Of a DNA stretch of 64,000 nt, positions 32,072-63,964 are shown in pieces; position 1 is the stretch's first letter, and each line of letters opens with the position of its first letter. The notes beneath the pieces are model-generated. The model was not told the origin of the DNA. It saw only the letters and a program-made list of their open reading frames with translations, and did not search any database. Source of the DNA: Haliotis rufescens (Eukaryota); assembly GCF_023055435.1 (NCBI RefSeq), contig NW_025963813.1, positions 27,714,001-27,778,000 on the forward strand, read 5' to 3'. A program made the position numbers and the translations under genes.

Positions 32072-32147
32072 GATGACACAGTGACGTGGGGCGTGTGTGT
32101 CCCCGATACGTGTAGCGAGCAGGACGTGGAAGAAATGTTCCAATTAG
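32072..32147 (+). CDS. Exon 3 of NRF/EF-hand gene, copy 1
   Basis: tttctttccag|GAT...TTAG|gtaggt; DDTVTWGVCVPDTCSEQDVEEMFQL (NRF GxCxPxxCS motif). Confidence 0.9.
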
Positions 32148-37386: not shown

Positions 37387-37532
37387 GTGAGGTCACCGCT
37401 TTGAATTGTTAAGGCTATGCAATTCTCATGTGGCGGTGGCGCCGCGATTCGCGTCCCTTGTGCACGCCAGAAACCTATGATTGTGGGTTCGAATCCCGGT
37501 TTGCCCCGATTGTTTCTAAGCACCATACCTGT

Positions 37533-38026: not shown

Positions 38027-38634
38027 CATACCCGTGGGTTTCACCGAAGTAGTAAACGTCTAAAACCTGCATCACTTCGGCCTTTCCTCCCACGAAATGT
38101 GCTGGGACAAACATTCGAGAAACATTTCGCCCGAACACATATCCCTAACAAATGAGTCACGTTCGACTTGATCACCTGTCCACCCCGGTTACATCTTTCT
38201 CGTGGCCCTGTCGAGACTGGTACTGAGTTGCAGAGAATGTTTGTGAGCTGGCTTCTCATTTGCAACATCTATGACACTAACTGATGAGGATGGGAACATG
38301 ACAAACGTCCACCTGTGAAAGCCGACATGCCTTATCGTCATTGCTGTGAATTTATGGATGTCAACTTCTTTATTATCAACACAACGTTTCGCAGTATATG
38401 CTTACTCCTCACGGGTTGTTAGTTATGCAAAAGTTGCCTATTTTCCTACCTGGAGTCTTCAGTCGTGACATAAAACCGTATGTAGGACGTGTTTTTTAGA
38501 TCGAAATGCTAATGTAAAACCTGTCCCAATATTGGCTGCGCCCAACGGAGAATTATATGCTCCTCGAAAGTTGTGTTTATAGAAGCTGGCTGCATACTCC
38601 TCTCCAGTACTGTACAATTTCGGTTTCTTTTCAG

Positions 38635-38693
38635 GAGATGGGTTTGTCAACCTCCAGGAGTTCAGCTACAACTGGCAGTCTGTCGTCTCGTAG
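38635..38693 (+). CDS. Terminal exon 7 of NRF/EF-hand gene, copy 1
   Basis: tttcttttcag|GA GAT GGG...TAG; GDGFVNLQEFSYNWQSVVS*; AATAAA at 38731-38736. Confidence 0.87.
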
Positions 38694-41161: not shown

Positions 41162-42411
41162 TACTCAACAACAAAAGTTCCTGTGACACCAATATTTTAC
41201 TGTATTTTTCAAACAAGTAAAGTTTGGTTTTCAATATTGTAGTACATGTATGGAATCAAGTCACAAAAACGCAACAGCTACAGAAAAGCATGCATTCCAT
41301 GCAAAAGTTGACCCATGCATTTCACTACCCAAGAATGGGTATAAAAACATGTGCGTTAACGGGATTCCATATGCATTGTTTAGCATCGTGCTGACAACAA
41401 CCACTCAGAAACACAACAAAATTACGCAATTATTCAACATTACGAAATGCCACGCCTTTCCGAAAATGAGCGTCTGCGAGCCATTGCGAGCGTAGGCTTG
41501 AAGCAGGATCGAGTCAACGTGATGTTGCAAGACAATTTAACGTCCACAGAAACACCATTTGGTGTTTATAGCAACGTTGGCAACAGACGAATGCAGTCAG
41601 AGACCATCCTCGGAGTGTCAGGCCACGCGTAACCAATAATCGACAAGACAACTGGATTTGAACAACACACCTACGAAATCGATTCCAGCCAGCAACAGTG
41701 ACTGCAAGAAGAATCCCTGGCCTTCGACGAATATCTTCACAAACCGTACGCCGTCGCCTCAGATGTGCAGGGATTGTCGCCAGAAGACCCACCAGACGTC
41801 CCATTTTGACAGGAAACCACCGTCAAGCACGTCTACAGTGGTGCAGACAGCGTCTACGGCCCTGTTGTTCTACCGTTTTTGCGTCGTCATGGCCCAGGCA
41901 TTACCTTTCAACATGACAACGCCCGGCCTCATTTTACTCGACTTGTTCAGAATTCTCTTCAACAAAACAACGTGAATGTCATCCCCTGGCCGGCTCGCTC
42001 CCCTGATCTCTCACCAATCCAGCACATGTGGAATGAGATGGATCGGCGCCTTCGACGTCAACCACGTGTTCCGAAGACACTCCAGGAACTTCGAAACATG
42101 CTCCAGCAGATATGGACAGATATCCCACAGGACATTGTGCGACGCCTGGTCCATTCCATGAGATGAAGATGTGTTGCTTGTATCGCAACCAGAGGTGGAC
42201 ACACACGCTACTGATTTGTAAATTGACATTTTGGCATGTTCATGTGTTTTATGAAATCACGCATTTTCTGAAGTCAGTATGGCAAATTAAACCATTTGAA
42301 CACTTACAGGAGTCTGTTATCTGTTGCAAACCGAAATTGTTTCAGATTTGGTAAAAACATAACTTTGCATTAAATCTTAATCAATTTCACAGGAACTTTT
42401 GTTGTTCAGTA
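41162..42411 (+). mobile_element. Tc1/mariner transposon with an internal deletion
   Basis: TIRs tactcaacaacaaaagttcctgtga / tcacaggaacttttgttgttcagta with TA flanks; MPRLSENERLRAI, FQHDNARPH, WPARSPDLSPIQHMW; first catalytic Asp region deleted. Confidence 0.9.
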
Positions 42412-43045
42412 TACATTCATTCATCATACCGCCAACGCCAACCCCAACCCCAGTCTTTTTTAGACTTGATCTAAATTTAAAAGTGAATAGAGAAAGATAT
42501 TTAAATATTGAAAAGTCACTAAGAATTTGCCGGGTACACCAGAAATGGGCTTCACGCAACCTACCCATATGGAGAATCGAACGGGGCATTGTGCGTGACG
42601 ATCGAACGCTTAAACCACTAGGCTATCCCACCGCCCCGTCTCAGCTTGTATACTTCCACCATCTATCGTGAATAACGTATTGAAAGAAGCAAGAACACTG
42701 CAAATGTAATGTGTATAAATGGAAATGCAACGTCGACTACAATGGCAGAAGTTGAATGTCGCCCATGATAAATATAAGTTATCATCATTATCATCGTCAC
42801 TTTATGGCCAATAAGTGGTTAAATAACTCTGTGAATATGACTTAAGAAATTACTTAAAACTTAAGTTGGTTGTTAGAGAAACTCAGATTTCATGGTGGGT
42901 TTAAGAATTATTAATATCTTAAGAAAATTATAAGAAGCTTTGTGAATACCGCTCCAGGAATGGTATAAACACATTGAACCGGTTTTCACTGTGACGAGTC
43001 CAAGCTTTCTCCAAACCCACTCGGAAGGCCTGGAAAGCAGAAACT

Positions 43046-43250
43046 AATTTAAAAACAATTGTACAAAAACCTATGATTTCAGCATTTATCTAACTACGTA
43101 TACAAAAGGCGTTTTTAATTATTTTTTTTATATGTTTGTTTTATCAGGGCAAATAGCGGTGGTTTGTAGAATACTTATGGCAGCCATATTGGACACCTTT
43201 TGTAAACGTAAATGCTGACATCATAGGTTTTTGTACAATTGATTTAAACT
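43046..43250. mobile_element. Small MITE-like inverted-repeat element
   Basis: tttaaaaacaattgtacaaaaacctatgatttcagcattta / taaatgctgacatcataggtttttgtacaattgatttaaa. Confidence 0.7.
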
Positions 43251-44440
43251 GATTGCAATTGCATGTTATATGTGTACACTGTCATCACTAAATGTATTCA
43301 GCTGAGTCACTACTTCATAAAGATTTTTTATTAAGCGTCCGAAAACCTATTTCTATGACCCCTGCTATATATGTTATACCTTTTTCAGTATGAGACACAC
43401 ATTCTACCCTTAACTAAACCTTGGGGGCAAAGTGCGGCCAGCCCACTCAATAACACATCGTGTGTACTGGTTTATCAAGTTGACATTTTGGTTATTTTAT
43501 AGTATTTGGCGCTGTTTACTTCAGCGGGCCTCGTGTGTCAGACTGGCGTGACTTGGAACCATTTCCGACCACGGACTTTGCCCTGTGCTATCCTGGTGCA
43601 GCCACACTGATTACTCTAAAGTTTGCGGAAAAAAGTGAACATAAATATAAAGCGGGAGCGGAAGCTTTTGGATACATTTCTAACAGGTTTAGTGATAGCG
43701 TTTTAAATAATATTGGTAATGATAGTAAATGAGTTGGGTTTCTTAAACATTTTTATATCTGGTCGGCGGAATAAAAAAACACACACACTGCATTCTTTTC
43801 TTGTTTTTCACATTTTCATTGTTTTGAAGTGGGCGGATTCGTAGGACCAGTTTTTTGTGTTACCAGTAGGGGTGTAGATTCGAACCCGGACAAGTGAACC
43901 TGATTTACGGCGCTATTGACTACATGTTCACCCGTGACAGCGTAATCTTTAAAAAAAAGAAATAATGCACTCTGAGTTCGGTCCTGAGAGTTGAAGGGCT
44001 TCATGTAGAGAGATAATGGAGATATTTTTATGTGTGGTGAACGAATGATAATACCTTACTTATCATATCACGAGATAAATAATATATAGTATTTGACATT
44101 GAAAAGCAATTTCTCTCAAATCTCCTATTTTTATACAGATAAGCGTTATTCACTCGGAAATATCGATTTGAGTTCAGTTTGGTTTGTCTGTTTGTTGTTT
44201 TACGCCGCACTCAGCAATATTCCATGACGACGGTCTGTAAATAATCGAGTCGGGACCAGACAGCCCAGTGATTGATATCTTAAGCATCGATCCACGCAAT
44301 TGGGATACGATGACATGCTTCAACCAAATCAGCGAGCCTGACCACCCGATCCCGTTAGTCGCCTTTTACGACAAGCATAGTCGCCTTTTACGGCAAGTAT
44401 GGGTTGCTGAAGACCTATTCTACCCCGGAATCTTCACGGA

Positions 44441-44675
44441 GAGGAAGATAAAGTAATGTATTTATAGGACTTGACGCGGAAGATAAGTAATGTATTTATA
44501 GGACCTGACGCGGAAGATTAAGTACTGTATATATAGGACTTGATGCGGAAGATGCAGTACTGTAGTTATAGTTAAACAACAAACAAACAAACTTTATCTT
44601 CCGCATCAAGTCCTATAAATACAGTATTTTATCTTCCGCGTCAAGTCGTGTACTTTATCTTCCGCGTCAAGTCCT
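44441..44675. repeat. ~34-bp tandem units (4 forward, 3 inverted) forming a foldback
   Basis: gcggaagataagtaatgtatttataggacttgac repeats followed by inverted tttatcttccgc(a/g)tcaagtc repeats. Confidence 0.85.
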
Positions 44676-44759
44676 GCATATATCCGTCGTAGCACATCCT
44701 TTATTGACGGCGTTATACCTATGTATCCCATGTGACATACAATAGGCCTTCACATATCT

Positions 44760-45050
44760 CACCCTCACCTGTAACGTCAGGACTGTGTCTTATCTGTAAC
44801 TGTGAATGTGATGACATTGTTAAGCACCAATTGCTTTACTGTGATGACCTAATGAAACAGAGAAATGTGCTTAGTAAGTCTCTATTTGACAATCTCAGAC
44901 TTGAGGACACGTTTAGTGATGACGTCAAGATACCTCGGTGCCATTACAGATGTGGTCCAGGACATGACACTTGACAGCTGGGCTACATTTATGAGTATCG
45001 TGGCTAAACATGTCAGCTCATGGAACTTAACATCCATCTTGTATGTGTAA
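44760..45050 (+). mobile_element. Possible 3' remnant of a non-LTR retrotransposon ORF2 (CCHC-like motif)
   Basis: CLICNCECDDIVKHQLLYC...KQRN resembles a LINE C-terminal CxxC...H...C motif. Confidence 0.4.
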
Positions 45051-47104
45051 CCGATTTTAGTGTGGAGGCAACATCAAAAGTCAAAGACACTGGTTACGGG
45101 GTGAGAACGTTTTATTCCCGGTCAATTAAACACACCCTGAAACAATATATCATTCAATATATACAGCGTCATACAATATACCTGAGGCTTAAAAACAGTC
45201 CATTACACAAATTAGGTGAAACAAAGGACAGATCGTATGACAATACAACAAGGGGAGATAACTCCTTGATTAACTCATATCTTCAAAATATATTCAAATT
45301 AAATATGACACAGACGTCTTAATGCAATACGCATATCAAATAGAATAGATGTGATACTCAGTATCACATAAACATACGGGATGCAAAATAGCATAGTTCC
45401 TACCCGGTGTATGGCACTAGGGTGCACACGACGTTAACCAAGCTCCGCCAAATCAGATATACCAAGCGTACCTAAAATCCGTGTAAACAATATGCAACAT
45501 TAATTCTACAGTAACTACAAATCAACATAGCTATTATCATTACCAACACCTGGAACACATCAAAACAACTTAGGCTAAAACCACATTCGTACTTACATTC
45601 ACATATACACTATTCTTCCTCTCATATATGAAATCAGTCAATCAACCACTCAAACATGCAACGATTCACTCATAGGGAAAATATAATTACCTGAATGAGT
45701 TATTTGATAGTTATTTGTATTGATTCTATACTCTGAAATGCACTAGAACCTGACTGAAGTGTTATTTACATTTAGGTTAGATTTACCATTATTAAGGTTG
45801 AATTTACTTGTTTTATTTATATCCACACAATACAAATATAACATATAAAGTGTACACACTCATAAACCAATGTAAGAGATTAAACTAACCTGTGAGGTAT
45901 TTGCATTTGTTTATGACTCCATGGTATTACAATCCTGATGGTGCAAAGAGTGACTGTGAAGTGCAGCTTTGAATTAGGAAAGAGGGCAAGAGTTTGAATG
46001 ATCCAATCGGTATTCATTAAATCAGGCCACATAATAATGTGGTAGCCCTACCTATCTACCCTTAATCATATTAGAATGAAACTAACTATAGAGCTAATAA
46101 TAGACTCAACCTTCTGTGTCCTTATAATTATAGCCTGTATCAAAAATGACCAAACCTGTTGATAGAACAAAATACATTCATTAGTTAAAATCAGAAATAA
46201 TACACCTGCAATTCATAATGCAATTGTCATTATACAAATATCAATGCAACACTTAAATGACTTAAAACTAATATTTACATAACTATATAATACAATAATA
46301 TGTATCTGCCACATATGTGTGAAGCTATGTCACACATCATGTAAATACAATTTCACGCATCACTTCATTACTGCTTACCCAGCTCAATCTGTTGTATTTA
46401 TATGTATTTTGCCATTGCCGTTGTCAAATAATGTAATGTAATTGTATGTACTACTCTCCAAATCATTGGGGGAAATAAAGAGTATTCATTCATTCATATC
46501 CCACTTAGCATTACCATGAAGCTCCAGTGATATCTGTCCACATGGTTGTTGCTGACCGACGTGTTGTGGGGTCAGGCTTGAGTCAGTATAAAGTTCATCT
46601 TAACTGGTATTCTCAACTTGAGCAATCTGCCTGCAAGCGTTGTACCCAGAGTGAGTGAGTTGGGTTTAACACCGCTCTGAACAGTATTCCAGTTATATCA
46701 CGGCGTGTCAGTTTTATGTGGGAGGAAAGCCCGAAGTGATGCAAGTCTCAGACGTTTACCACTTCGATGTAACCCACAGGTATGGTGCTGACAAACCTTA
46801 AACATAATCGGAGCGAACTGGGATTCGAACCCACTATCATAGGTTTCTGGCGTGCCCAAGGGACGCAACTCTGCACAGCGAATCGCGGCGCCCTTTCTAG
46901 ATAAAAAAACCTGAGATAATTAACTACGCCGCTGTCGGAACTATTGACGATAAGCATGGCGGTCCTATGACGAGGCTGTCCAGTAGTTGTGCGTGAGGGT
47001 GACACACACTCTGTCAGTCCACCCAGTGTGTCAGGCCATGTCACGGCGGGGATAGGCTTCATATGCATGACATTGTATTTTCCTAATGTGACGAGTCGAA
47101 CCGA

Positions 47105-47425
47105 AACAAAAACTTCGATTTTTTCTCGTTACTTCCATTATTTACTCGTTATTTCAATTATTTTCTCGTTGCTTCGAGTTTATTTTCCAGTTATTTAAAT
47201 TATTTTCTCCAAATTTCGAGTATTTCACGTTACTTCGATTATTTTCAAGTTTATTACAAAGTTTCGAAATTTCGAGAAAACAATTGAAACAACGAGAAAT
47301 AATCGAAGTAACGATAAAAAATACTTGAAATTTCGAGATAATAATTTAAATTACCAGAAATGATCGAAGTCACGAGAAAAAACTCGAAATTTCGAGAAAA
47401 TATTTATAATTACGAGAAAACAAAT
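47105..47425. repeat. AT-rich foldback element with ~20-bp subrepeats in inverted arms
   Basis: Left arm ttttctcgttacttcga repeats; right arm tcgaagtaacgagaaaa / tttcgagaaaa repeats. Confidence 0.8.
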
Positions 47426-48137
47426 AACTGATGCTACCAAGGTGGCCCCATTAGGCTTTCGTAGGTTACGTATGTGAACATGGAGGATTTAAAATCTCAC
47501 CCTGCCAAGAGGCAGGGTACTCCTCTGTGCCCAAATAGAGTGGTCTAGATGTCGAACGCGGACTTGTTTCCCTTAGCCGTCCTCGAAATCTGTTATCGTG
47601 GGTTCGAATCCCAGATTCGCCTTTGTCAGCATCATTTTTATTACCACCATGCTGGATATTAGCCCCATTTCATACTTTGCTGGTACTATTGTTAGAAAAG
47701 AAATATTTTGCATTTTAACTCGAACGTTACTTCTTGCAATTCTACTAGTTGACAATTAGTAGACGATTGACAATAGATGCCCAATTTATTCCCACAGATG
47801 GGTTTGGGGTCAGTCCTGATGGCCATGTTCCTATTTCTCAAACAATCCATTTACATATGAACTGTGTTTTGGCGAGCGTTATCCCTTTGTAATTGAAACT
47901 GACGGGTACTACGCGTAAAGTATACCAAGACTGGCCTCAAGACCTCATCGGCATCATGCATCCAAGTAAATCGACCATCAACACGTTTGGAGTTTGTCCT
48001 ACAGCCGTAGTCTATGCCGGCTGTAGCCATTTTGTATGTAGACTGGCTTTTTTTCAGCTACATTTGCACAACCAGATATGTATTAATTTGATTCTTAATA
48101 GAAGCACAATTATTGCTTCTTGCAATTTCTAGCACTT

Positions 48138-48184
48138 CCCACCCCAACCCCAACCCCAACCCCAACCCCAACCCCAACCCCAAC
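48138..48184 (+). repeat. (CCCCAA)n microsatellite
   Basis: About 7 tandem hexamers. Confidence 0.95.
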
Positions 48185-48585
48185 TCACCCTCACCCCCGA
48201 ATATCAAATGGGTAGTCCCTAAGCAAATTCCATAACCTTGAAATCCCACTGATTCACTGAGACCATTAGTTCCCACCTAACAACGCCTAATGCTTGTCAT
48301 TTGTGCGCTACGGTCATACATTGTGTCATCTCGCTTACAAAGCGGCAAATTCTCACCATTCTGTTAGGTTGATGTATTGGTGGCATTTTCATGCGTTTGG
48401 AATTATTGAATGTGGCCACTATATAGAAAAAAATGTTATGGGAAAGTATTTGTTGTTGCGCTGCCTGGCGCTCGGCTTTAAGGGGATAAAACAAGAACTG
48501 GTCGGTTCGGAGTCAGTATACTGTGTCTGAGTGGGGTATCAATGTTAAACAAGCATGGTGTTTCAGTGGTTTTGTATTATAAAAA

Positions 48586-48825
48586 GGGGGCGCGGGTGGC
48601 CCAGTCGTCTAAGGCGCCGCGATTCGCTGTGCAGAGTTGCGTCCCTTGGGCACGCCAGAAACCTATGATTGTGGGTTCGAATCCCGGTTCGCCCCGATTA
48701 TGTTTCTAGGTTTGTCAGCACCATACCCGTGCTCACTTCGGGCCTTCCTCACACATTAAGCTTACATGCCGCGATATAACTGGAATACTGTTAAAAGCGG
48801 TGTAAAACCCAACTCACTCACTCAC
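48586..48825 (+). mobile_element. SINE family B inserted into a family D remnant
   Basis: 13-bp TSD ttgtattataaaa at 48572 and 48826. Confidence 0.9.
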
Positions 48826-50282
48826 TTGTATTATAAAACCGGCAAATCTGGACAAAATGACAGCAGTATCGACACACACGAGCTTCTTTTTCATAAGGAA
48901 TTCTGAAATAATATAAAAACTTTAGTACATATAACCCCACATGCACACCGTTAATATCAATAAAATGAGTCATTTGAACACAGATAGCTTACAAACTAGA
49001 CTTTGCCCTTTCTTCAGACACTCATATATAAACAGGCAAGATAAACAGTAAAAAGATTGGACTTGACAAGTATATAAAAAGGTGGGTGTGTCGATTTACG
49101 AGTGCTCATTGATGTGAAACAATATTTACCTGGAGAGATACAAAAACCAATGCACGTTTCTGTATGTCCAAACTCGCAAGAGAATGTCAAGATCTAGTGC
49201 AGCAAGCACGAATGGTCATGTTCATAATCTGTGATTCTCAAATCTTGCGCACTAATTTGATAAGACAGTATCTTAAACTGTTTAAAATGCATCGGTACAT
49301 GGCATGATTAAGTGCGTGAATGCCCCGACTAAACTAAGAGAGGAACCCTGTCATCGGCACGTTGAATGCTGAGGTTGAGAACGCCACATTGTCACAAGTT
49401 AAATACAATGATACGTGTAACGTTTACTCGATAACCGTGGTTAGACATTGACCCAGCACTCCACGTGTGACGACTTCATTGACGCCATCGGTTCCACACT
49501 GCTGTCCTTCCCCGACGGTAGCAAGTGGCCACCAAGGCCTATAATGGACACACGCGTTGTTGAGTGAAGATGTCCAAGGCATCGTTCTCGGCATCAATGA
49601 CGTCATCATGTTGTTAACAAGTTGTGTACAACCATCATACTAAGCTCATAGTCTTAAACAAACAAAATATATCTGGTCTTGCGGCTGAAGCTGAAACAAT
49701 ATCTAATCTCGATACTAAATATCTAGTCTCAATCCCATACTATTTTGTGGTCAGCCGAATAGACAACGTAGACCTCAGTGTATCTGTCTATTGGATAATG
49801 GACGGTTACTTTGACCTCACCCCCAACCCAAATAGAATTTACACTTGACGGTGCCCAGACGTCTGCATCAGTCACCATATTGCTTACTGTCTTGTGTATT
49901 CACAAACTCGGAATGGCTCAATCCAAGGCCAAAATACAAAATTTTAAGTCGAGTTACAATTTTCGGTAAATGTACCGGGTCGTACCCGGGTTGCCAGTGT
50001 GTCACGAGGGATTTTACTTATAAACTATACCATAGATAACAAAAATGCTATATTTAGCATGACGTTGCCATTGCAAACAGGTTCCTAAGTCCTGCTGGCA
50101 TACCATTGGTATCACAAAGCTAGCGACAACTGGTAGCGACGGACGCGTTTAGTATCGCTCGTGTGTCATCCATATCAGATCCCTCCGACGCCCTGTGTTT
50201 GAAATGTAAAGTACTGGACCTCTTTGAAAGGATCAGTTAGAGCGAACATTGAACATTGTGTGAAATTGGATGAACTTTCGCC

Positions 50283-50901
50283 ATGATTCGCTACACATTA
50301 TTCGCTGTTATGGTGGTCGTGTTTCTGTCATATGTTTCCGGGCAAACCGACTTGGCACACAGTTACACCCCGGACAAACAACCTCTGAATGAGACGGCGT
50401 TGTTTGTGGCAGACGCTTTATATAAACACCCAGTTCTTTTCCGTAAACTTCTCAAGATCGGCGCTGCTGCTAAGCCGTTGTTGAAGCTAGGGGGAAATGA
50501 CCCCAAACTTGGCATGTTTTGGAACTTTGTTCTGGATATGTTACCAGGACTGCTGCAGTCGCCGGAAACCGCCAGCATCCTGGAAATCCTGGCCGACGAA
50601 CTCCACCGAGTCAACATCACTGATGTGTATGGCTTTCTCCAAGCTCATAACATGACCCAAGACAACCCACAGGCAAAGCAGATGGTGAGCGGCGCCATTT
50701 GGAAAAGATTCGATAAACTCCGAACTGTCCGGAGAATCCTGACCGGCAATTCTGCTCGTCATTTTCTTCCCATGACCAGCAACGACACCATCACCGATGT
50801 CTGCTACAACGACATGATGAACTTCATGGACGCCATGATCAGCGCTCAAATACCACCCAGAGACGCCCTTAACTACACCTTCATTCCCTGGGCGCTGAAC
50901 A
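50283..50901 (+). CDS. Paralogous intact exon 1 ('1a'); likely first exon of NRF/EF-hand gene, copy 2
   Basis: Signal peptide MIRYTLFAVMVVVFLSYVSG; shares QPLNETALFVADALYKHP, ADELH.VNITDVY, CY.DMMNF, QIPPR..LNY...PWAL with exon 1b; ends AAC A|gtaagt (phase 1). Confidence 0.85.
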
Positions 50902-50933
50902 GTAAGTATACATTCTCCCGTGATCCCAGATCA

Positions 50934-51046
50934 GGGCCCACCTTCACAAAGCGATCGTAGCGCTAATAAGATTCGTAACTCCCATAGGTACTTTAACACA
51001 GGCTTACAAGAGTCGCAGCTCCAAGATCGCTTTGTGCAAGTGGGCC
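50934..51046. mobile_element. Small MITE-like palindromic element
   Basis: gggcccaccttcacaaagcgatc / gatcgctttgtgcaagtgggcc. Confidence 0.65.
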
Positions 51047-52351
51047 GAGTAAGATGTTCACCGCATTAAGATGATCTTCTCAACAGTAAGTAGAAGTTCG
51101 GCCCTAATCCAAGACCATGTCTTACTGTATTAAGAAAATTGTCTAAGTTTTACCTTTATCCATATAGGTATTTTAAAGATGAAAATGATTTAATCTAACT
51201 GTTCAAATGGAAAAAAGAAGAGGTTCCCTGTGCATTCTATTGAGTGAGACGTACTTTTTAACTGCTGCGCCAAATTCACACGTTACCATAGAGGCATGGA
51301 GGGAGACCACTCACAGTGTTAACTGTTAACTGCATAAAAGTGTTATTAATGGTATTTACCTGTTTACGTCAAATAGAACACAACCACTTTAAGATAAACC
51401 ATTAATGGTATAGAAAGCATCACAGTTTCCATTCTGACGTTATTATTTAAAATAAAATGTCCACGCCAGAGATTATCCCCCTTAACAGATTCCATTGGGC
51501 GTAAACGGAAAAATAGCGGTGAAAATCAGAGAACACCAGGTGTTCGCGAAAATAACGTTTCACCTTTGCCATTACGTAATGCAAACCCTCGTACAAGGGT
51601 AAACCATGCACACTTTACAACTTTGTGTCTAATTCCTCAAGATCAATGTTTACCAAATAGCTGTAATAAAAGACAAGTTAATTCTAGTTAACTTCAGTTG
51701 TTTATTTGTTTGCAACTGGTCAACTTTTCACTTTTCCCAGATAGTGCTGTAAGACATTCGTCATAAAAATCAAGCGAGTTCGTGCGTTATGGGGCGATCT
51801 TTGTGTTCCAAGGGGCAATAACTCGCCTTTTAAGATGATATAAGCGACGGTCCAACCTGTCGTTTCCGGTCTGGTTTTCACATTATTAGTTTAGAATATC
51901 AACATTTGTTAGTGGTTTTGCTTGTTGAGTTTATAGTCGACATATCACTGATTTCAAAGTCGTGCAGACCTAAATTACTTTGATCAACCCCAAAATAACA
52001 CAAGACCAACGGACCACGATTTATTTCATTTTACTGGCCCCTAAGAAAAGATATTAAACTCGGACCAGCGGACCAGTGTTAGTGTCGAACACTGAAGCAT
52101 CCTTAAAGGGACTCTGAGATGTTCATCTCCCCCTGCACATATTACCCTTAATCCATGCACTGACGTTTCCACTCTCCTTACAAACTTTACCATAATGTTT
52201 GGTACTTCCAAGATGTGTTCATCAAGATTATACTGTCTGGATCAAACCATTCACTTATTTCAATTTTTTTAGAGCTGCAAGCTAAGAGTAATTACGGATC
52301 ATATGTTCCGACTTTATATGTTGATTTCTCAAGGCCATGTCTATTATTACC

Positions 52352-52552
52352 CATCTTTCCCAGGCAAAGGAGTTAACTGACTATGTGATATGAGAGTCGG
52401 AATCTGATTGGTCAAAAAGGGGGACATAGAAGGGACATAACTCGTAATACCCACTGGTGACGATACGATCAAGCCCAGAAATTCCAGCGTAGTTCTTCAA
52501 AGGAGGAAACTGGACTTTTACAGTCAGTTAACGCCCTTTACTCAAGAAGATG
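52352..52552. mobile_element. Internally deleted copy of the Mutator-like MITE
   Basis: catctttccc...gaagatg ends; perfect 9-bp TSD attattacc at 52343 and 52553. Confidence 0.85.
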
Positions 52553-52836
52553 ATTATTACCCAAATAAATTATATCCCATATGGGGCATCACTATACATC
52601 GTGTCACCTGTTGGATGTTCTTGGGTAATGATCAAATAAAACCACTTGACACTCCAAATTACAGGTCATATGACCCTCACCAAGGCTCGAAAATACCTAT
52701 CCTGTTCGATGTAGCCCTGACTCTCTTCCTGAAATCCTGTGGCGTGAAAGACTACCCTGGTCGAGCAAACGTCCGTACACTGTTATATCGGGCACGCACA
52801 TTCACTGTTTCCTCGGGTACTCGTGTATATCTTTCC

Positions 52837-53796
52837 TGTTACCAAGGGCACTGACAAGTAAGTTCACTGTTACCTAGGGCAGTGACAAGTAAGTTCACTG
52901 TTACCTAGGGCACTGACAAGTAAGTTCACTGTTACCTAGGGCACTGACAAGTAAGTTGACTTTTACCTAGGGGACTGACAAGTAAGTTAACTGTTACCTA
53001 GGGCACTGGCAAGTAAGTTAACTGTTACCTAGGGCACTGACAAGTAAGTTAACTGTTCCCGAGGGCACTGGCAAGTAAGTTCACTGCTACCTAGGGAACT
53101 GACAAGTAAGTTAACTGTTACCTAGGGCACTGGCAAATAAGTTCACTGTTACGTTGGGCACTGGCAAGTAAGTTCACTGTTACCTAGGGCACTGACAAGT
53201 AGGTTAACTGTTACAAGGGCACTGACAGTTAAGTTCACTGTTACCTTGGGCACCGGCAAGTAAGTTAACTGTTACCTAGGGCAATGACATGTAAGTTACC
53301 TGTTACCAGGTCACTGACAAGTAAATCCACTCACTGTTACCCAGGGCACTGACAAATAAGTTAACTGTTACCTAGGGCACTGACAAGAAAGTTAACTGTT
53401 ACCTAGGGCACTGACAAATACGTTAACTGTTACCTAGGGCACTGGCAAGTAAGTTAACTGTTATCTAGTGCACTGACATGTAATTTAACTGTTACCAGGG
53501 CTCTGACAAGTACGTTCACTGTTACCTAGGGCACTGGCAAGTAAGTTAACTGTTACCAGGGCACTGACAAGTAAGTTAACTGTTACCTAGGGCACTGACA
53601 AGTACGTTAACTGTTACCAGGGCACTGACAGTTAAGTTCACTGTTACCCTTTGGCACCGGCAAGTAAGTTAACTGTTACCTAGGGCAATGACAAGTAAGT
53701 TGTCTGTTACCTAGGGCACTGACAATTTCGTTCACTGTTACCTAGGGCACTGACAGGTAAGTTCACTGTTACCTAGGGCACTGACAAGTAAGTTAA
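52837..53796 (+). repeat. 31-bp tandem minisatellite, about 31 copies (paralog of 26695-27608)
   Basis: Same unit, head-to-tail, no spacers. Confidence 0.97.
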
Positions 53797-54475
53797 TTAT
53801 TTCCAAGTGCAAAGAAAAGTTCCGAAAAACACAGCTTAACTGAATAAACTGAATATGAATTTTCTTACATCTGTCTGTAAATAATCGAGTCTGGACCAGA
53901 CGATCCAGTGATTGACATTATGAGCATCGATCCATTCAATTGGGACACGATGACATTCATCAACAAAGTCAGCGAGCCTGACCACCCGATCCCGTTAGTC
54001 GCCTCCTACGACAAGCACGGGTTGCTGGAGGCCAATTCTAACCTTGATCATCACGAGAGAATATGTTATCACGTGAACAAACTCGGCTTGATTATAACAA
54101 TCTTCGAAAAGACACACGTTCAAGGTCCCACAGATAAAACTTATTAGAGTTTTAGCTGGACCATATTAATCTCAGCTGTTTATTTGACTTGTGCTGAGCT
54201 TTAACATCGGGTCAGCATATGGATTGCGACGGAGGGAGAGAATGGCTCACCTTGTGGCATGTCACCCCTCAATTTGTTCACAATCCTGCACGAGAAGCAT
54301 CGTCATCTTTATTTGGAATGTAGGAGACACATCCTAACCGGCTACTCTTGCATGTTCTGGTATCGTATGACTTGCTAACAGCTTGTGGCAAGACACACTC
54401 AGATTGTTGCAACATCGTTGCCCGGAAGACGCCACAACCGTCTTCCAGTCTTCACGAGCAGTCCACACTTTCACA

Positions 54476-54800
54476 ATGTGGAGTCAAGGTGTGTGTTTAT
54501 TTCTGTCGGTGGTTTGTGTCTCCGGACAAGCTGATCTAAGTAACAGTTTCACGTTGGACCAACAACCATTGAATGAAACAGCATTGTTTGTGGCTGACGC
54601 TCTCTACAAGCATCCCAAATTGTTCCGAAAGTTGATTAACATCAGCTCTGAAATTGGGCCATTCATGTCATGAATGTCAGAAGTAAGATGAGGACGCTTC
54701 AAAGACTCCTCACTCTTGGTAGTGCCCGGGACATCCTCCCCCTCAGCGTCAACGACAGTATCACGCCAGGATGCTACAGCGACATGATGATGGCCTTCGT
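54476..54800 (+). pseudogene. Destroyed copy of exon 1b
   Basis: Nearly identical start to 28448 but stop at 54671-54673, an internal deletion, and loss of the exon end, splice donor and intronic minisatellite; ~180 bp upstream (28231-28410 equivalent) also absent. Confidence 0.88.
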
Positions 54801-54904
54801 CAGTCAAAAATAATGAGTGTCAGGCAAGGAAATTGTTATTTTAGGTCGTCAGTGCCCTAGGTAATCACCGCGATACTTATGAATGAAAAGTGAGGACTGG
54901 AATC

Positions 54905-55135
54905 ATATTCCCTTGGGTTGTAAAAATTACATACTAATACAATGCTAGGGAGTAGGGCTTTGGACATGATACCTTGGGTCGTGAAAAGTAGGACTTGGAC
55001 CATGTTTCCTTGGGTCGTGAAAAGTAGGAGTTGGACCTTATTACCTTCTGCTGTGCAAAGTTGGACTTTGGCCTTATTACCTAAGGCTATGAAAAGTAGG
55101 ACTTGAGCCATATTATCTTGGGTCCTGAAAAGCGA
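54905..55135 (+). repeat. Diverged ~33-35-bp minisatellite (ccttgggtcgtgaaaagtaggacttggaccatg...), shorter paralog at ~29915-30032
   Basis: Tandem units with the same cc(t/a)(a/t)ggg...aagta(a/g)g layout as the 31-bp satellite. Confidence 0.75.
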
Positions 55136-55553
55136 GTAATTAATACCCGCCCTCTCATCGATATCAAGCGCCATTTGTTTTTACTCGAAAAAACACATTT
55201 TCGTCGATACTGTCCTTTACGTTACATATACTAGATTATGTCAAGAAAAGCATCAAACCACTGCAAAACTATTGGTCACGCCCGCAATTGTAGCGTCCCT
55301 GTAGTACAATATGGGACTGCTTCAGATCTTCACACCCTTGTGTCCCCCGCCCGCAATTCAATGATTGTCCTAAGCCAAGTAAGAGGAGGATGGGGTGGGT
55401 ACAATGTGTGACGTGACGGATAATGTCATCGTACCCTGACGGCGTGGGTTGCTGATCATGCTCGCAATCACTGGTTTGTCTGACCCAGACTGTATTATTT
55501 CAGGGCCGCAGTATAGAGCTGGAATATTTATTCAATCACTCACTTATTTTCAG

Positions 55554-55765
55554 TGCTGGACTCCTACGGCAAGCCGCCTAGTGGTATTTTCGAGGGAAAT
55601 GTACACTGGCTGGGCGAACCGAAGGAATGTCGGAGCATACACGCGCAGTTGGCTCCTGGAGTTATCCTTGGTAACAAAACGCTTACCTCCCCTATCGACT
55701 TCAAAGGAAAATACTGCCGGGCTGTGTTTCATCATCTGCCTTTGGTTGCGGACATCTCTCAAATG
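55554..55765 (+). CDS. Exon 2 of NRF/EF-hand gene, copy 2
   Basis: 212 bp, intact frame and splice sites. Confidence 0.8.
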
Positions 55766-57167
55766 GTATGTCAACACTTTGAATGTAACGTGAAGCCTCG
55801 TTACTCTGGACATCATTACGTCCCCATTTGACCCGTGAAGATCCGGGAAGAACAGATCTTCAGCAACCCATGCTTGCCGTAAAAGGCGACTATGCTTGTC
55901 GTAAGAGGCGACTAATGGGGTTGGGTGGTCAGGCTCGCTGACTTGGTTGATGCATATCATCGTATACTAATTGCGAGGATCGATGCTCATGATGTCAATC
56001 ACTAGTTTATTTACAGACCTGCGTTATATAGCTAGAATATTCTTGAGTGCAGCGTTAAACAACTAACAAAAAATATAACGTCCACAGTTATCGTTTTCCC
56101 AAGCCTATCTTAACCAACTGACCATCTAGATTAACGAGGTTTCGCTATCTAGAGATATATACGTTATATCCTGAGACAATGGATTATATATTGGTCGAAA
56201 TATGCATGCCTTGTTGAGAAGTGAGTGTTTTTATTTTCTTTAGTCAGCTAATTCAGCAACTCCACGCTTCTTTGATCAGCTCTTACAGGACACAGGTCAC
56301 AAATCAGGCGAGGTTAAGCAACGTTGGTCTCGGAGAGCACTTGGATGGGAGACCGTGTTCGCCAGATTGACTCCTGGGACTTGCTAGGGATTTGGTACTG
56401 CCCCACAGTGAAGCACACGCAGCACATGTTGTGTGTCCTTAACGCAAGTGACTCTGTTCCAATCATGCCTCTGTTCATCCAGCACTGAATGGGTACCCAG
56501 AAGGATGAGATGGTAATGACGGTAAACCTTCCAGCGCCTCACATCCACCGTAATAAAAATTATATAGCGCTTTCTGCATGCCTTGTGTAGTATGATAGCG
56601 CAATATATATAGGAGTAGCAGCAGCAGCAGTAGCTCTCTCGCATATTTGGAGTCTCTGATCCGTGTGTTACCTTTATGTATACTTTCGGGGGCACGGGTG
56701 GCCAAGTCGTCTAAGGCGCCGCGATTCGCAGTGAAGAGTTGCGTCCCTTGGACATGCAAGAAACCTATGATTGTAGGTTCGAATCCTTGTTCGCCCCGAT
56801 TATGTTTCTAGGTTTGTCAGCACCATACCCGTGCTCGTGGGTTTCACCGAAGTGGTAAACGTCTGAAACCTGCATCACTTGGGTCTTTCCTCCCACATTA
56901 AGCTGACACGCCGTAATATAACTGGACTACTATTAAAAGCGGCGTTAAACAAAACTCACTCACTCACTCAATTATGTATACTTTCCTGTAAACAAATTCA
57001 AGACTGGAATGTTTTGCTGGGAACATCTAGGAATTCACTACAAAAGCATGATTCGTTTATCCGGACATTTGTTAATCCGGACGATTTCATCTTGAACGGC
57101 AAAGTAGGATAAAAGAACGTTCACTGTATTTCATCAGTCATGTGAGGTATATAACCTGATGGATCTA

Positions 57168-58663
57168 AACTGAGGGCCAAAAGAAACGTTACCAACATTA
57201 ACTGATTTGCCACTTTGAAAGAAAGATGCCAACCTGTTCAAAGAACACATCTCACGAATACAGCCTTCATGTTCTCTTTCGTTCTTTGGACGTGCTTTGC
57301 GGATTTTGGGAGATATTGGTGTTTTTCAGCAATTTTTTAAAACCTTCTTTCCAAAATTATCGTGCAATTTGCGGGTATAAATTACGCACGGATCTGTTCC
57401 CTATCATTGGTTGCGATGATTAACACCAACGAACATGCCAAGACTGACCGCTGTCCAGAGGGAGAGAGCCATAGGTATGCTGCAGATGGGAGCGACACAG
57501 AGAGAGGTTGCCATTTAACATGAACTGCTCCAAGATGACCATTACCAGACTGATCGCACGTCTCCGACAGACTGGCAGAACCGCAGACAGACCACGGAGT
57601 GGCAGACCAAAGGTCACGACCCCGCAGGATGACGCCTTTTTACGGGTCCTTCATCTGAGGAACAGATTTCTTACTGTGATGTCATCAGCTGCCAACAGCT
57701 TAGGACATCCGGTCAGCAGGCAAACAGTGACCAGACGACTACGACATTATGGCCTCCGGGCTTATCGCCCTTTCAAGGGCATGACCTTGACCCGTCAAAA
57801 TCGACGTGCCAGATTGACTTGGTGCAGGCAAACTCAGCGATGGCAACAAAGGGAATGACGGCGAGTGTTGTTTAGTGACGAGAGCAGGTTCCAACTCTTA
57901 ATACCTTCGGACGCGAGTTTATCGACGACGTGGTGAACGTACGGCTCCTTGTTGTGTCCAGGAGGTGGAACCGTACGGGGACGGAAGTGTGATGGTCTGG
58001 GGCGGCATTTGCGGGGACGAGAAGACGGAACTTGTCATCATCGAAGGCAATCTGACAGCACAACGCTACATTGACAATATCTTACGGCCAGTGGTTCTTC
58101 CTTTCATCCAGCGTCAACAACGGACGGTGTTCCAACAAGATAACGCCACACCCCATAAAGCCCGTATTACAAGTGACTTCCTCAACGCCAACAACGTGAC
58201 TGTCCTGCCGTGGCCAGCTCAATCACCAGATCTGTCACCCATAGAACATCTCTGGGACGTCGTCTTCGGAAACGTCAACATCCTCCCTTCACGAGACAAG
58301 CGTTGATCGTTGCCCTCCTTGAGGAATGGAATCGGATACCTGCATGAGACGCTTGTCTACTCAGTTCGACGCCGCATTCGAAGATGCATTGCCGCTCATG
58401 GAGGTCATATCCCGTATTGAACGGTCTGGGCCGTCGTCACCTTAAAGTTGTAACCAATGTTGTTGATCGAATATTGGACGAATGATCCCTTGTCAAGAAA
58501 TGTCCTTGAAGGAGGTCAAGGACTTTGTTGTTGAATTAGTAAACGGATTTTACTGTTCTGAATGATGGATTTCTACAATACAATTGTTATTGCTGCTTCT
58601 AATTGTGTTGGTCATATTCTATCCTAGAAATATCGTTGGTAACGTTTCTTTTGGCCGTCAGTT
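57168..58663 (+). mobile_element. Tc1/mariner transposon (same family as 12750-14259), disrupted, in intron 2 of copy 2
   Basis: TIRs aactgagggccaaaagaaacgttaccaac / gttggtaacgtttcttttggccgtcagtt, TA flanks; transposase with stop at 57856-57858 and frameshifts. Confidence 0.93.
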
Positions 58664-59840
58664 TATGTCAAATATTCATCAAATCATAACAAAACCGTAT
58701 AAGCTTAAGTCAGGGCTGTTGATTAACACCACTAACACAATGGTGTATGTTCTCGTATCTGTTCCAAGAGATGAACATGATTAACAGTTTGGTTGTAACA
58801 CAAAGTGTTTATTGAAATACATAAATCTGCTTCACTTTACGTTGTTATGAGGCAGAGCCGGTACAGAGTGCTGACTCGACAGATATGAAAACCATCACGC
58901 CTCTGTTATATAACAAGAAGGGAAATCAATATTCCAGACTCCCACTCCCGACCTGCTACAATTGCAGATACACGGTATGTTAGGTTGTTCTTTTAACAGA
59001 TCCCTTCCTTGATTGTTTTTATGCCCAATCCTAATATTTAATATTTTTATGAATTATTTTCTGATGGTCGACATTTCTATTTCAAAATTTATGCTTGTTT
59101 GTTTGTTTGTTGTTTAACGCCGCACTCAGCGATATTCCATCTATATGACGGTGATCTGTAAATAATCGAATCTGGACCAGACAATCCAGTGATTGACATC
59201 ATGAGCATCAATCCACGCAGTTGGGGTACGATGCAGCATCAACCAAGTCAGCGAGCCTGACTATGCGACCCCGTTAGTCTCCTCTTACGACAAGCATAGT
59301 CGCTTTTTACGACAAGCATGGGTAGCTGAAGATAGATTCTCACCCGAACCTTCACGGATCGATTAACAGGATTGGGTGGTCAGACTCGCTGACTTGACGT
59401 ATGGTCAGGCTCATTTAAGCCCTGCATCACTTCGGGCTTTCCACCGACATCAAGCTGACACGCCGTGATATAACTGGAATACTGTTAAAAGTGGCGTTAA
59501 ACCCAACTCTCACACCCCTATGCATACATGCTGCATTTGAACCAAATACTAGTATACAACCAGGCAGCATATTTCTGCAGGTGTCAAAGTGACGAGATAT
59601 TCAGTGATAACATCCAACGTCTCGTCCTCAGAAGGTCGTTCCATTAGCTAACAAGTTGATGGCTTAGATTTTCTGGGATTCCCCCCAACCTTGGCAGGGA
59701 GTTCATTCACCAGATTTGGCACTGTCAGATTTCCACCTTGAGGCATGTGATTGGGTGACGCAATCATTTAGACATGAAGTATTGCTGAAGCCCCATTCTC
59801 ATGATTCCACTCCGGGTTCAATTCTCTACTTTCTTTCCAG

Positions 59841-59916
59841 GATGACACAGTGACGTGGGGCGTGTGTGTCCCCGATACGTGTAGCGAGCAGGACGTGGAA
59901 GAAATGTTCCAATTAG
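59841..59916 (+). CDS. Exon 3 of NRF/EF-hand gene, copy 2
   Basis: Identical to 32072-32147 including splice sites. Confidence 0.8.
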
Positions 59917-60292
59917 GTAGGTGGCGTTACCGAATACCATAAAGCGGCGGGGTTAGGGGTAGCCATCGATCGATCACTCCAGGCGCTGTTTAAATCCCGA
60001 GCAAAACTTAAGGTACCGCCTCCGTGGTGGAGTGGAGAGAGCGTCTGCCCAGTCGGTGGTTCGACCCCCGGTATCGTCAATTAATTAAATGAAGTCAGTG
60101 TACATACTGAAATAACTCATAAGACAGGTTTAAAATGATTTGAATGAAACTTGTTAGGTCTCAAACATTATCGGTTCTGAAAACCTGTTTTGTACAATTG
60201 ACGTTATGAAGATACTAATCGAGGTAACGTAGTATTTATTAATAAAACAAATCCTATGTGCAGCATGTAGGCTTGGATTTATTATTTTGCAG

Positions 60293-60404
60293 GTTTCATG
60301 AAGAATTTCCAGACGACTCCCGATAATGTCTCATGTTCAGACATCCAGGAACCTACTGGTCATGTGCCCGTCACGCCCCGGACTCCCACGACCGGTCCCC
60401 CCAC
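60293..60404 (+). CDS. Exon 4 of NRF/EF-hand gene, copy 2
   Basis: 112 bp, frame and splice sites kept (PPT changed to PTT). Confidence 0.75.
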
Positions 60405-62683
60405 GTGAGTACATCACATCCCAGATGCGACCCGTGAAGATCCGGGTTAGAGTAGGTCTTCAGCAACCCATGCTTGTTAGAGGCGACTGACGGGATTGGG
60501 GGGTGAGGCTCGCTGGCCTGGTTGATTAATGTCATCGTGTTCCAACTGCGTTGATCGAAACTCCTGTCAATCAGTGGATTATCTGGTCCGGTTCAGAATC
60601 GATTATTTACAGACTGCCACCACATAGCTGGAATAATGAGCACCGAGTGCGGCGTTTTACAACAATCTTGACCCGTTCTCCAAAACCAACTTAACGCTGC
60701 TATTATCGCATCTTCCCGAGGCAAGGGACTAAGCTGACTATAAGTCCAATTTTATGCCGAACTGGGCTTGAATTTCTGAGTTATATTTTTACTAGCCTAA
60801 CGATCGCGAGTGTATGCATATTCCAGTCAAAATCGCGTATCGGAATAGACATACGATTCGTAAACATGGCAACTTCCATGCAGATAAAGCTCGATTGTAG
60901 TATTTAAGTGCAAAGCATGTGTACCGCCACCTTGGTTCAACAGTCCAAATCTTTCATGTTTGATCAAATTGCCCATGTGATTTGATGCACTTCGTGGAGT
61001 AAGACCGCTTTATATAGATCTTCATCATCGATCACATTGCATTGCCTTGGCGCTGCCACTTGGTTTGAAACAAATGCAAGTGATATGAAAGGTGGAATCT
61101 GATTGGTCAATATGAGACGCAACTGGTAAAAGTAGCCAAATTCGACAAGGGTGGAAATTTATGAAGGTCGCATCTCGAAGATCGTTGATTAAATGGTGTC
61201 CAGCTGAGAATGTGTTTAGTTTAACGCCGACCTCGGCAATATTCCTGCTATAAATAGCAGTCTGGACCAGACAAACCAGTGATCCACACCGGTGGGGTAC
61301 GATGCAGTCAAGCCTCCGAGCCTTACTACCCGACCCTTGAAGATCCGGGGTAGAATAGGTCTTCAGCAACCCATGCTTGCCGTAAAAGGCGACTGTGCTT
61401 GTCATAAGAGGCGACTAACGGGATCGGGTGGTCGGGCAAGGTGACTTGGTTGGTGCATGTTATCGATCCCAATTGCGTGGATCGAGGCTCATGATGCCTC
61501 CAGTCTCGATTATTTACAGACCGCCGTCATATAGCTAGAATATTGCTGAGTGCGGCGTTAAAAAAACAAACATTCCGCCACCCCTTAATTAAGCATAGGT
61601 TGCTGGGAATCATGTTCCCGAGGCAAGAACGTCAACTAGCCTATTTATCAAAGTCTACATCTACCCTTGCCACATCAAGCCCACTTCCCTTTGCTTAATA
61701 TGGTAATAGCACACATCAACAGTCAAATCAAGGAACGTTTCACCATCCGAAAACATGGACGTGAAGACAAGTATTTGCCAAGTCTGTCCAAGTTTTATAT
61801 CGACACTGCCAAGTACTGTACTTGTAAGCGACCCGTGAAGATCTAGGATGGTACTTGTAAGAGGCGACTATCGGGATCGGGTGGTCAGGGTCGCTGACTT
61901 GGTTGATGGATGTCATCGATCCCAATTGCGTGGATGGATGCTCATGATGTCAATCACTGGATTGTCTGGTCCAGGCTCGATTATTTACAGACCGCCGTCA
62001 TATAGCTGGAATATTGCTGAGTGCGGCGTTAAACAACAAACAAAACAAACTTGTAAGCGGTACGATAAGTCATTCCTTTAAACACGACTAGTACACATTC
62101 GTATAAAAATGATTTACCGCTGCCTGTCATTTTTTACAAGAATGTGTTTTTCCATCTTAAGACCCCTCAACGATTGCCTTTGTGACGGATGAAATCGCGA
62201 ATGTTTTCGTAATCTGATCGACCAGGTCCTCGTCTGTGGTTGTCGCTATCTGTGTGAAGTCATACGAACAGTGATCTGATTGGATATCGCGTTCTCATTT
62301 ATATACAAGGGGCTCAACTCGTGATCTACACGAGATGGCGACAGGACCAAGCTAAGAAAAATGGTCTTGACGTGGCAAGGGAAGACACTAGGCTTTCATT
62401 TTGGCAAGTGGACACGCTTGCCTCGGGTTGGAATTGGTCTTCAGCAAACCATGTTTGTCGTATTAAAAAGACGACTGAGGGGGTCGGAAGATCAGGCTCG
62501 CTGACTTGATGCATGTTATCCCAATTGGCCGATGTTTATTCAAATCACTGGATTATCTGATCCAGAATATATTATTTACAGACCACCGTCATATGGCTGA
62601 GTGCGGCGTAAAACACGCTAGTATGCTGGCCGTAATACCTTATGCGTGGTACGATGAAATGTACATATAGTTGTCACTTGCAG

Positions 62684-62808
62684 CACTACATTTTCCAGTC
62701 GTCCCAGTGTTGCAGCGAACTCCCTTTTCACATCGTGTTCCGACTGCAAAGATCGAATCAAGCCAGACGAATGGATGAACTGTTTCTTCTCCAGTTTTGA
62801 CACCGACA
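62684..62808 (+). CDS. Exon 5 of NRF/EF-hand gene, copy 2
   Basis: 125 bp, frame and splice sites kept (K to S). Confidence 0.75.
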
Positions 62809-63793
62809 GTGAGTACATGTAGTTATCTGCCTTGACAGTAACAAGCTCCTAACAGCGATACATTATTGCCTGGCCCCTTTACGAAGAACGGATAGGCACT
62901 GCTCTGGAAACAAACTGATGTGTGTAATTAATTTATCTCCCCCTGTCCTTGATTCATGACGAATAGTCGACCTTGAACACTAGGATCATATCTCTGCAGG
63001 ATAATACACCATTTAATATTCCGCTACCATATTCGAATGACAACGCTACAAATAGCCGTCCAATCGCCATGTTGGGTTACTCCCGTCTTTGTAGCCAGGA
63101 AGACATATTTTCCAGCTTCATTTTAAACAGTCTCTTAATTCGATGGCCCGCCCGTAAGAGGACGTGAATTTCAATGTAGATTAATGCCGAGGATTGGATA
63201 TCCAAAACGTCCGCAATAAACATCTCGTAATTGACAGCTAACATCGTTACAGATAAAAGCGAAGTTACATGCAATATGGATTGAAAGCAGCTATGTTTCA
63301 AATCTGAGCACAAGTCACTTATAGCTGTCAATATTGTTGCCTGTTCACCTCAAACTCAGTTATCCGCCCCTTTCCCCAAAAATTATGTACTATCTAGTTG
63401 GTTGTTTAACGCCGCACTGACCATTATTCCAGCTGTATGACGGCGGTCTGTAAATGATCAAGTCTGGACCAGGCAATCCAGTGATTGACATCCAATGGGT
63501 TGCTGAAGACCTATTCTACTCCGAGTCTTCACGGGTCCAACCTGTGATAAAAGTGTTATCGTCTTAACGCTACGGAACGGAGCTTTGAACTTCGTAAACT
63601 TGATATTAAGAGTCCCCAATGCAAAGAATAACCTCATGAAGGACTGTGATCTGAAATGGACATCAACTCAGACTATTGTTGGAACGAGGTAATGAATGAT
63701 GTCAGCTTCAATTATTTGCGACAATGCGTTCATATGGACCTTCTTGTTGGTTTAAAAAAAACTAACAATGTACCTAAAGATTTACTTTTTCAG

Positions 63794-63964
63794 AAAATGG
63801 CAACATCAGCAAGCGTGAATGGTGGTCCGAGAGCCACAAGCTGGGGCTGGACACGACTGACCAGGGCCAGATAGCGCGAGCCTTCATCCAGCTGGACATC
63901 AACAAGGACCTCCAGATAGACGCACCTGACCTCAAGTATCTCTTCGCCTTCTCTGACGACAACG
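63794..63964 (+). CDS. Exon 6 of NRF/EF-hand gene, copy 2 (weakened donor; exon 7 would lie beyond the window)
   Basis: 171 bp open frame (E to Q, F to S); donor gtgagg changed to gtttga by a 12-bp deletion. Confidence 0.65.

Follow-up and report, generated by a model that had tools for sequence, protein, structure and literature searches.

Promoter and first exon of a distant paralog in front of a duplicated gene of the abalone Haliotis rufescens: a candidate young chimeric gene

How does a gene copy that has lost its own first exon come to stand behind the intact first exon of another gene, and can the combination work? The question is raised by a stretch of 64,000 nucleotides of Haliotis rufescens (C35:27714001-27778000, hereafter the window), which holds several intronless sulfatase genes followed by two copies, B1 and B2, of a seven-exon gene that is called gene B here. 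The translated genes of the window are letter-identical to named RefSeq proteins. In B2 the native first exon, 1b, is dead, and a paralogous exon 1a is located upstream of it. The best explanation of the whole, which we consider probable, is that the promoter and exon 1 of a separate gene, A, were captured in front of B2 and gave rise to a putative young chimeric gene, likely transcribed, alongside which both parents, A and B1, are intact. The parts of B2 are as follows, in window coordinates unless stated otherwise.

50283-50901, plus strand: coding part of exon 1a, with a hydrophobic leader, a helical domain of ~150 amino acids and the first helix of the NRF domain; phase-1 donor
54476-54790, plus strand: dead exon 1b; stop, two large deletions, donor gone
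55554-55765, plus strand: exon 2 (NRF domain), B type; AG/GT ends, open
59841-59916, plus strand: exon 3 (NRF domain)
60293-60404, plus strand: exon 4 (end of the NRF region and Thr/Pro linker), phase 1-2
62684-62808, plus strand: exon 5 (start of the EF-hand region); a second in-frame acceptor before 62699 corresponds to RefSeq isoform X2
63794-63964, plus strand: exon 6 (EF-hands); weakened donor G/GTTTGA, Phe-to-Ser change just before the last loop
C35:27779053-27779111, outside the window: exon 7

In exon 1b of B2 the frame is closed by a stop after 65 codons; 224 bp were replaced by 13 nucleotides and 851 bp, including the donor, by 20 nucleotides. The first-pass annotation of this DNA had called the exon dead for its stop, deletions and missing donor, which was confirmed. 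The loss of upstream sequence that it reported was also found, with a size of about 162 bp and not ~180 bp. Exon 1a, on the other hand, was correctly described as intact, about half-identical to exon 1b (55% protein identity) and joined in frame to exon 2: it is open for 206 codons, ends at a phase-1 GTAAGT donor and splices as PWALN-M-LDSYGK. Exons 2-7 of B2 have open frames and AG/GT ends. The description of exons 2-6 as intact stands for the reading frames and fails for the donor of exon 6, where a 12-bp deletion, common to a broken third copy (B0, see below), turns G/GTGAGG into G/GTTTGA. Exon 7, of which the absence had been envisaged, lies just beyond the window. Exon 1a and exons 2-7 together form a single in-frame reading frame of 457 amino acids, which requires the weak donor of exon 6 to be used and is identical to XP_046348730.2 (RefSeq LOC124129262 isoform X1).

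The source of exon 1a was identified by genome searches. With exon 1a as query, six matches were found among eight candidates. Outside the window the best match, at 95%, lies on the minus strand at C35:27394584-27395201; it differs from exon 1a at 20 of 618 nucleotides (97% identity). Exon 2 gave five matches among 13 candidates: B2, B1, B0, a 55% match and a distant 37% match. The 55% match is located 11 kb downstream of the foreign exon 1 and is gene A's own exon 2. Gene A is a separate gene on the opposite strand, 370 kb away, encoding an NRF6-like protein of 892 amino acids with NRF and acyltransferase-3 domains (Pfam), and it is complete, with 15 tblastn blocks spanning residues 1-892 at C35:27395201-27367689. 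Its exon 2 and exons 2-3 of B2 share 52% protein identity, a distance similar to that between 1a and 1b. Both parts differ by roughly half between A and B, so the two split as whole genes long ago. The 37% match is a more distant NRF paralog on another contig (C594:1127058-1127237).

The following features mark the limits of the transferred piece.

42459-52205, plus strand: inverted duplicate of the gene A 5' end, comprising its upstream region, exon 1 and the initial 1.5 kb of intron 1 (from C35:27407168-27393082, minus strand)
52201-52210: fusion junction; A-derived DNA to 52205, B2 from 52206 (equivalent to 26463 in B1)
41160-42413: transposon remnant in the 3' flanks of B1 and B2; its right end is the left breakpoint

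The A-derived segment matches the 5' end of gene A in collinear blastn blocks of 85-96% identity that end inside intron 1, and at the fusion junction a short GGYAC-like match is visible on both parents. The next 570 bases of gene A intron 1 past the breakpoint are single-copy, with a self-match only (57 matches; 40 of 1301 candidates scored), and no gene A exons beyond exon 1 were found in 164 kb around the window. Insertion of B2 into intron 1 of a second, complete copy of gene A was considered and rejected, because A exon 2 and the intron past the break occur once. At the left side, the 3' flanks of B1 and B2 align up to the end of the remnant near 42413 and then diverge; about 45 bases between this end and the start of the A-like DNA have no assigned origin. 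From its open reading frame motifs we take the remnant to be Tc1-like. The origin of each piece, both breakpoints, the open frame and the matching phase are established by these comparisons. The alternative offered by the first-pass annotation, capture of exon 1 from a neighbouring paralog, was right in the capture and wrong in the neighbour, the source being a duplicated piece of a gene 370 kb away.

In trees of eight and nine rows, exon 1a grouped with four A proteins and exons 2-3 with four B proteins, both with 100/100 support; the H. rubra B record has no exon 1 and was omitted from the exon 1a tree. Annotation of H. cracherodii, H. rubra and H. asinina gives A and B as distinct genes (five proteins among 840 candidates). 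This comparison is one of annotated proteins, in which A-type exon 1 is paired with an exon 2 of A type, and B parts with B parts. The cluster of the chimeric protein has two members, both isoforms of H. rufescens.

B0 starts at C35:27692041. It matches the upstream DNA of B1 (25365-26390 and 24768-25550) as far as the sulfatase gene, and exon 1a is found there in neither. B0 has frameshifts, a stop, a GC donor, lost exons and no working first exon. Its region, C35:27680860-27708200, includes an own sulfatase gene; B0 is broken in exons 1, 3 and 4, no match to exon 5 or exon 7 was found in it, and an inverted, perfect duplicate of 499 bp surrounds exon 4. The donor of exon 1b was lost in B0 as well, with breakpoints unlike those of B2.

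The elements follow one another as B1, piece of gene A and B2. In non-coding DNA, B1 and B2 diverge by 3.2-7.4%, and gene A and its copy in the window by 3.6-6.2%; this likeness is compatible with one event. A single rearrangement may thus have consisted of a tandem duplication of B with the 5' end of A templated into the junction, one break falling at the end of the transposon. At its birth B2 would have held 1a and 1b in tandem, after which the native 1b was lost. Two tandem first exons can have existed only in B2, after the rearrangement and before the death of 1b. A and B descend from one NRF6-like ancestor, with a phase-1 intron kept at the same place; owing to this common position the swap stays in frame. 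B2 is likely transcribed from the promoter of A and likely spliced from A exon 1 to B exons 2-7.

The transcription of this putative gene was examined with contigs of four runs placed on 49600-52700. The RNA nature of the runs is a guess; X1 and X3 represent one organism in two studies, and X7 and X15 another. The contigs define one further feature.

50127-50282, plus strand: 5' untranslated part of exon 1a; contigs of the RNA-like runs X1, X3 and X7 start at 50125-50130

Run X1 covers 50127-50901 and X3 50130-50716, with a depth of 0 in the non-exon bins 49808-50119 and 51056-51367. A contig of 451 nucleotides from X3 has no differences from the window, compared to 18 sites at which the assembled gene A differs. 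In X1, window-type contigs without differences (depth 59 and 79) occur alongside A-type contigs with six and nine differences (depth 130 and 148). One X1 contig ends two letters past 50901, where exon 2 of A (TGT) and exon 2 of B (TGC) first differ, so that an assembly graph containing both splices would break exactly there. In X7 only A-type letters were seen among the rows listed, and the contig continues straight into exon 2 of A; among the rows listed for X15, too, only A-type letters were seen. The contigs lend support to a putative fused transcript, short of demonstrating it. The second acceptor of exon 5, used in isoform X2, is in frame in B2 and not in B1, a hint of splicing of B2 provided that the isoform rests on reads. 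In the captured promoter a 76-bp deletion relative to gene A is present at 50110, ~15-20 bp before the apparent transcript start, and given this deletion its activity may differ from that of gene A.

Signs of selection on the chimera were sought in its substitutions and indels. There are no indels in 619 coding nucleotides of exon 1a and 753 of exons 2-7, where 2.3 and 3.1 were expected from intron rates (P 0.11 and 0.04). Substitutions private to B2, polarised by hand, number two to four in exons 2-7, compared to about 15 expected from the flanks.

Several observations weigh against the best explanation. Among the contigs on 49600-52700, no read or contig was found that joins 50901 to 55554; the contig of X1 does not show which two letters follow 50901, which makes the branch argument indirect, and the runs are only guessed to be RNA. 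Gene A is polymorphic, the A-type contig of X1 differing at nine of the 12 sites where the assembled A differs, and an allele of A might be the source of the window-type contigs. The gene models of RefSeq are predictions, and cross-mapping of reads from B1 alleles can occur. The pN/pS ratio (nonsynonymous to synonymous differences per site) is 0.55 for exons 2-7 (P 0.30) and 0.43 for exon 1a (P 0.10), with a pooled P of 0.048 that includes parental constraint. The remnants of the dead exon 1b are little changed as well, with three private substitutions in 327 nucleotides where 6.4 were expected (P 0.12); the conservation of exons 2-7 therefore cannot be dated after the death of 1b, and the constraint may predate that loss. 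Both certain private changes alter amino acids (Tyr-Phe and Phe-Ser). The weakened exon 6 donor is shared with the dead B0, and read-through would end the protein at DDNGLNC; together with the Phe-to-Ser change by the last EF loop it suggests C-terminal decay, in which the last EF-hand may be decaying. The history is also less simple than one event, as the upstream DNA of B0 is that of B1, yet several of its derived changes are found in B2, among which are the exon 6 deletion and two amino acid changes. Because of this sharing, and because site patterns among B0, B1 and B2 shift along the unit, recombination among B copies or alleles seems likely and a single-event history is a simplification. 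Finally, no independent DNA spanning the junction was found: X15 and X7, from one other organism, show the parental flanks unjoined near 52202-52206 among the rows listed. X15 was the only DNA-like run placed and comes from the organism with A-type letters only, which makes it uninformative on the window's own species.

Several of these points bear on the reading that the same rearrangement took place without yielding a working chimera, exon 1a being a transcribed orphan piece of A (or its transcripts those of an A allele) and B2 a pseudogene in early decay like B0. The shared weak donor, the Phe-Ser change before the last EF loop, four derived amino acid changes compared to H. cracherodii, a ratio of nonsynonymous to synonymous substitution (dN/dS) without significance next to a little-changed dead 1b, and a splice that was not read directly all suit such an outcome. 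We nevertheless hold it to be unlikely, since it has to accommodate a contig break in X1, two letters beyond the donor, that does not occur in X7, the absence of indels and stops from 1376 coding nucleotides where B0 has many, and an isoform X2 acceptor that suits B2 only. An assembly artefact, in which the other haplotype of the 5' end of A was mis-joined between haplotypes or copies of B, is very improbable. A divergence of 3-7% may, on general knowledge, fit the allelic range of a polymorphic marine mollusc, and the junction was not seen in independent DNA; but stretches of 164 kb and 100 kb contain no N, the three B copies have distinct lesions, the left break falls at a transposon end, and a mis-join leaves the combination of a dead 1b with open exons 2-7 and the contig branch unexplained.

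The model of the first-pass annotation, in which an ancestral gene carried 1a and 1b in tandem as alternative first exons and was duplicated, one exon being kept per copy, is largely refuted and can hardly be maintained. It was suggested by the homology of 1a and 1b, by their tandem position before one exon 2 in B2 and by their identical phase. Against it, exon 1a reproduces exon 1 of gene A at 97% identity; gene A is a separate gene that has exons 2-15 of its own, and exon 1a occurs upstream of only one of the three B copies, B1 and B0 having 1b only. The duplicated block does start where it had been placed (26463, for ~26460), yet this late start alone does not explain why B1 has no 1a, as the upstream DNA of B0 and B1 contains none. 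The breakpoint at 52205/52206 is sharp, and the annotated proteins of the three other Haliotis species keep A and B apart. Capture of the A promoter and exon 1 by B2 accounts for these observations.

The captured exon replaces the leader, the N-terminal helical domain and the first NRF helix of B. In isoform X2, Pfam identified an NRF domain at 174-299 (PF20146, E 2e-21) and EF-hands at 364-444, and no family in the N-terminal 150 residues; the acyltransferase-3 domain, found in gene A, is absent from gene B and the chimera. The AlphaFold model of the chimera has a mean predicted local distance difference test score (pLDDT) of 70, with blocks of residues 31-320 mostly at 76-97 and two at 64-65. 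The N-terminal ~150 amino acids are helical with good confidence, and the EF region scores low as few rows cover it; the model cannot separate a working from a dead hybrid. Foldseek with this model returned no PDB match at E 0.001, and the matches in the ESM Atlas were generic EF-hand clusters alone (<=0.90), the N-terminal domain yielding nothing of use. The 457-amino-acid chimera is predicted to be secreted and to consist of the helical domain of A, an NRF domain of mixed origin, with Cys174 from A and the remaining Cys from B, and the EF-hands of B. Its likeliest effect would be regulatory: a B-like, soluble and calcium-binding protein, predicted to be secreted, would be placed under the promoter of A and made at A's place and time, in agreement with the regulatory changes described for chimeric genes of Drosophila (PMC5460883).

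Gene B itself bears the marks of an older exon shuffle. Its exons 1-4 parallel those of A, exon 4 being phase 1-2 in both and ending just before the first membrane helix of A. Exons 5-7 parallel a stand-alone EF-hand gene at C1:74906506-74909030, with the same phases 2, 1 and 1 and exons of 116 and 165 nucleotides (the latter taken from the sequence) compared to 125 and 171 in B. NRF and EF-hand parts occurred together in six of 158 proteins, all from Haliotis, in a library-wide search (best 150 of 288 hits), and in four of 33 candidates, again all from Haliotis, in a separate search; a search by shared words for short relatives with EF-hands only yielded none among three candidates. To judge from these exon phases and protein matches, the likely origin of gene B is a fusion in phase-2 introns that preceded the divergence of these abalones. 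A scheme of two rounds of shuffling, from an NRF6-like acyltransferase to a soluble NRF and EF-hand gene B, which was then plugged back into the promoter and exon 1 of A through a state with two first exons, is put forward tentatively.

The remaining features of the window are listed below.

28448-38693, plus strand: B1, intact parental gene B; translation identical to RefSeq LOC124152475, XP_048250330.1, 453 amino acids
28448-29054, 30464-30675, 32072-32147, 33938-34049, 36080-36204, 37216-37386 and 38635-38693, plus strand: exons of B1
52780-53820, plus strand: 31-bp minisatellite that precedes 1b in every copy of B, now in intron 1 of the chimera; 19 GTAAGT motifs
57162-58650: transposon insertion in intron 2 of B2 only, 93.5% identical to 12757-14265 and absent from the B0 alignment; presumably Tc1-like

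Related 31-bp and 62-bp minisatellites at 26695-27638, 29043-29813 and 52780-53820 contain 21, 11 and 19 GTAAGT motifs, respectively. Their units resemble the donor of exon 1b; the 62-bp array begins at the real donor of B1, and B0 and B2 have both deleted the region of this array and the 1b donor. A cluster at 1810-25126 comprises at least five sulfatase genes without introns, some in each orientation, and Pfam Sulfatase and SGSH_C domains were present in all three that were tested; we assume them to be iduronate-2-sulfatase-like. The genes at 1810-3435 and 9394-11034 are each broken by a stop, and a sulfatase fragment lies near 24685-25126. Upstream of B0, large inverted duplications (C35:27654001-27676395; ~5 kb at 90% and 2.5 kb at 94%) were found, and a 2.2-kb tandem pair at C35:27810057-27814363; the region is therefore prone to rearrangement.

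The formation of a chimera by rearrangement is a well-known mechanism, and the protein was already predicted by RefSeq. No paper was found that names the four accessions, and among the papers listed none treats this locus, as far as title and start of the abstract go. The locus offers a dated, well-resolved gene birth in a mollusc by capture of a first exon and promoter, and because parents, dead sister and both breakpoints are at hand, the fate of the chimera can be tested in populations and tissues. Gene B adds a pairing of NRF and EF-hands without a membrane part, a soluble NRF protein that could help to reveal the role of the domain. If expressed and selected, the chimera would be a soluble NRF protein co-expressed with its membrane parent and a handle on binding partners of the NRF domain.

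In the UGT1A and clustered protocadherin loci, paralogous first exons encoding signal peptides stand in tandem before shared exons in the same phase. B2 resembles them in its paralogous tandem first exons of the same phase before one exon set. Unlike these loci, it has one live first exon (1a) and one dead (1b), the parent of 1a has its own downstream exons up to residue 892, and the arrangement is recent and one-off, being absent from the protein sets of three other Haliotis species. Gene A shares the architecture of the NRF-6/OACYL/Drop-dead family (NRF PF20146 and Acyl_transf_3 PF01757), whereas gene B and the chimera keep NRF without the acyltransferase domain and have EF-hands instead. 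The combination of NRF and acyltransferase is described for 15 OAC proteins of C. elegans, and NRF proteins as acyltransferase-linked (PMC12799122), while Drosophila Drd is presented as a predicted integral membrane protein of unknown biochemical function (PMC3707901). Secreted EF-hand proteins of abalone such as Hdh-SMP5 have been tied to shell formation (PMC10741955); Hdh-SMP5 is described there with 134 amino acids and no NRF domain, and its kinship with the EF-hands of B is only a lead. A further parallel is found in the young chimeric genes of Drosophila yakuba, for which Rogers et al. (2017) describe expression changes arising from shuffled regulatory elements and chimeric structures (PMC5460883). 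There, as in the abalone, duplication links the regulatory 5' end of one gene to the body of another (PMC5460883). In contrast to the Drosophila chimeras, the abalone 5' piece is inverted and has its source at a distance of 370 kb, both parents are old paralogs that have an intron phase in common, and the first exon native to the recipient came along with the duplication before it was destroyed.

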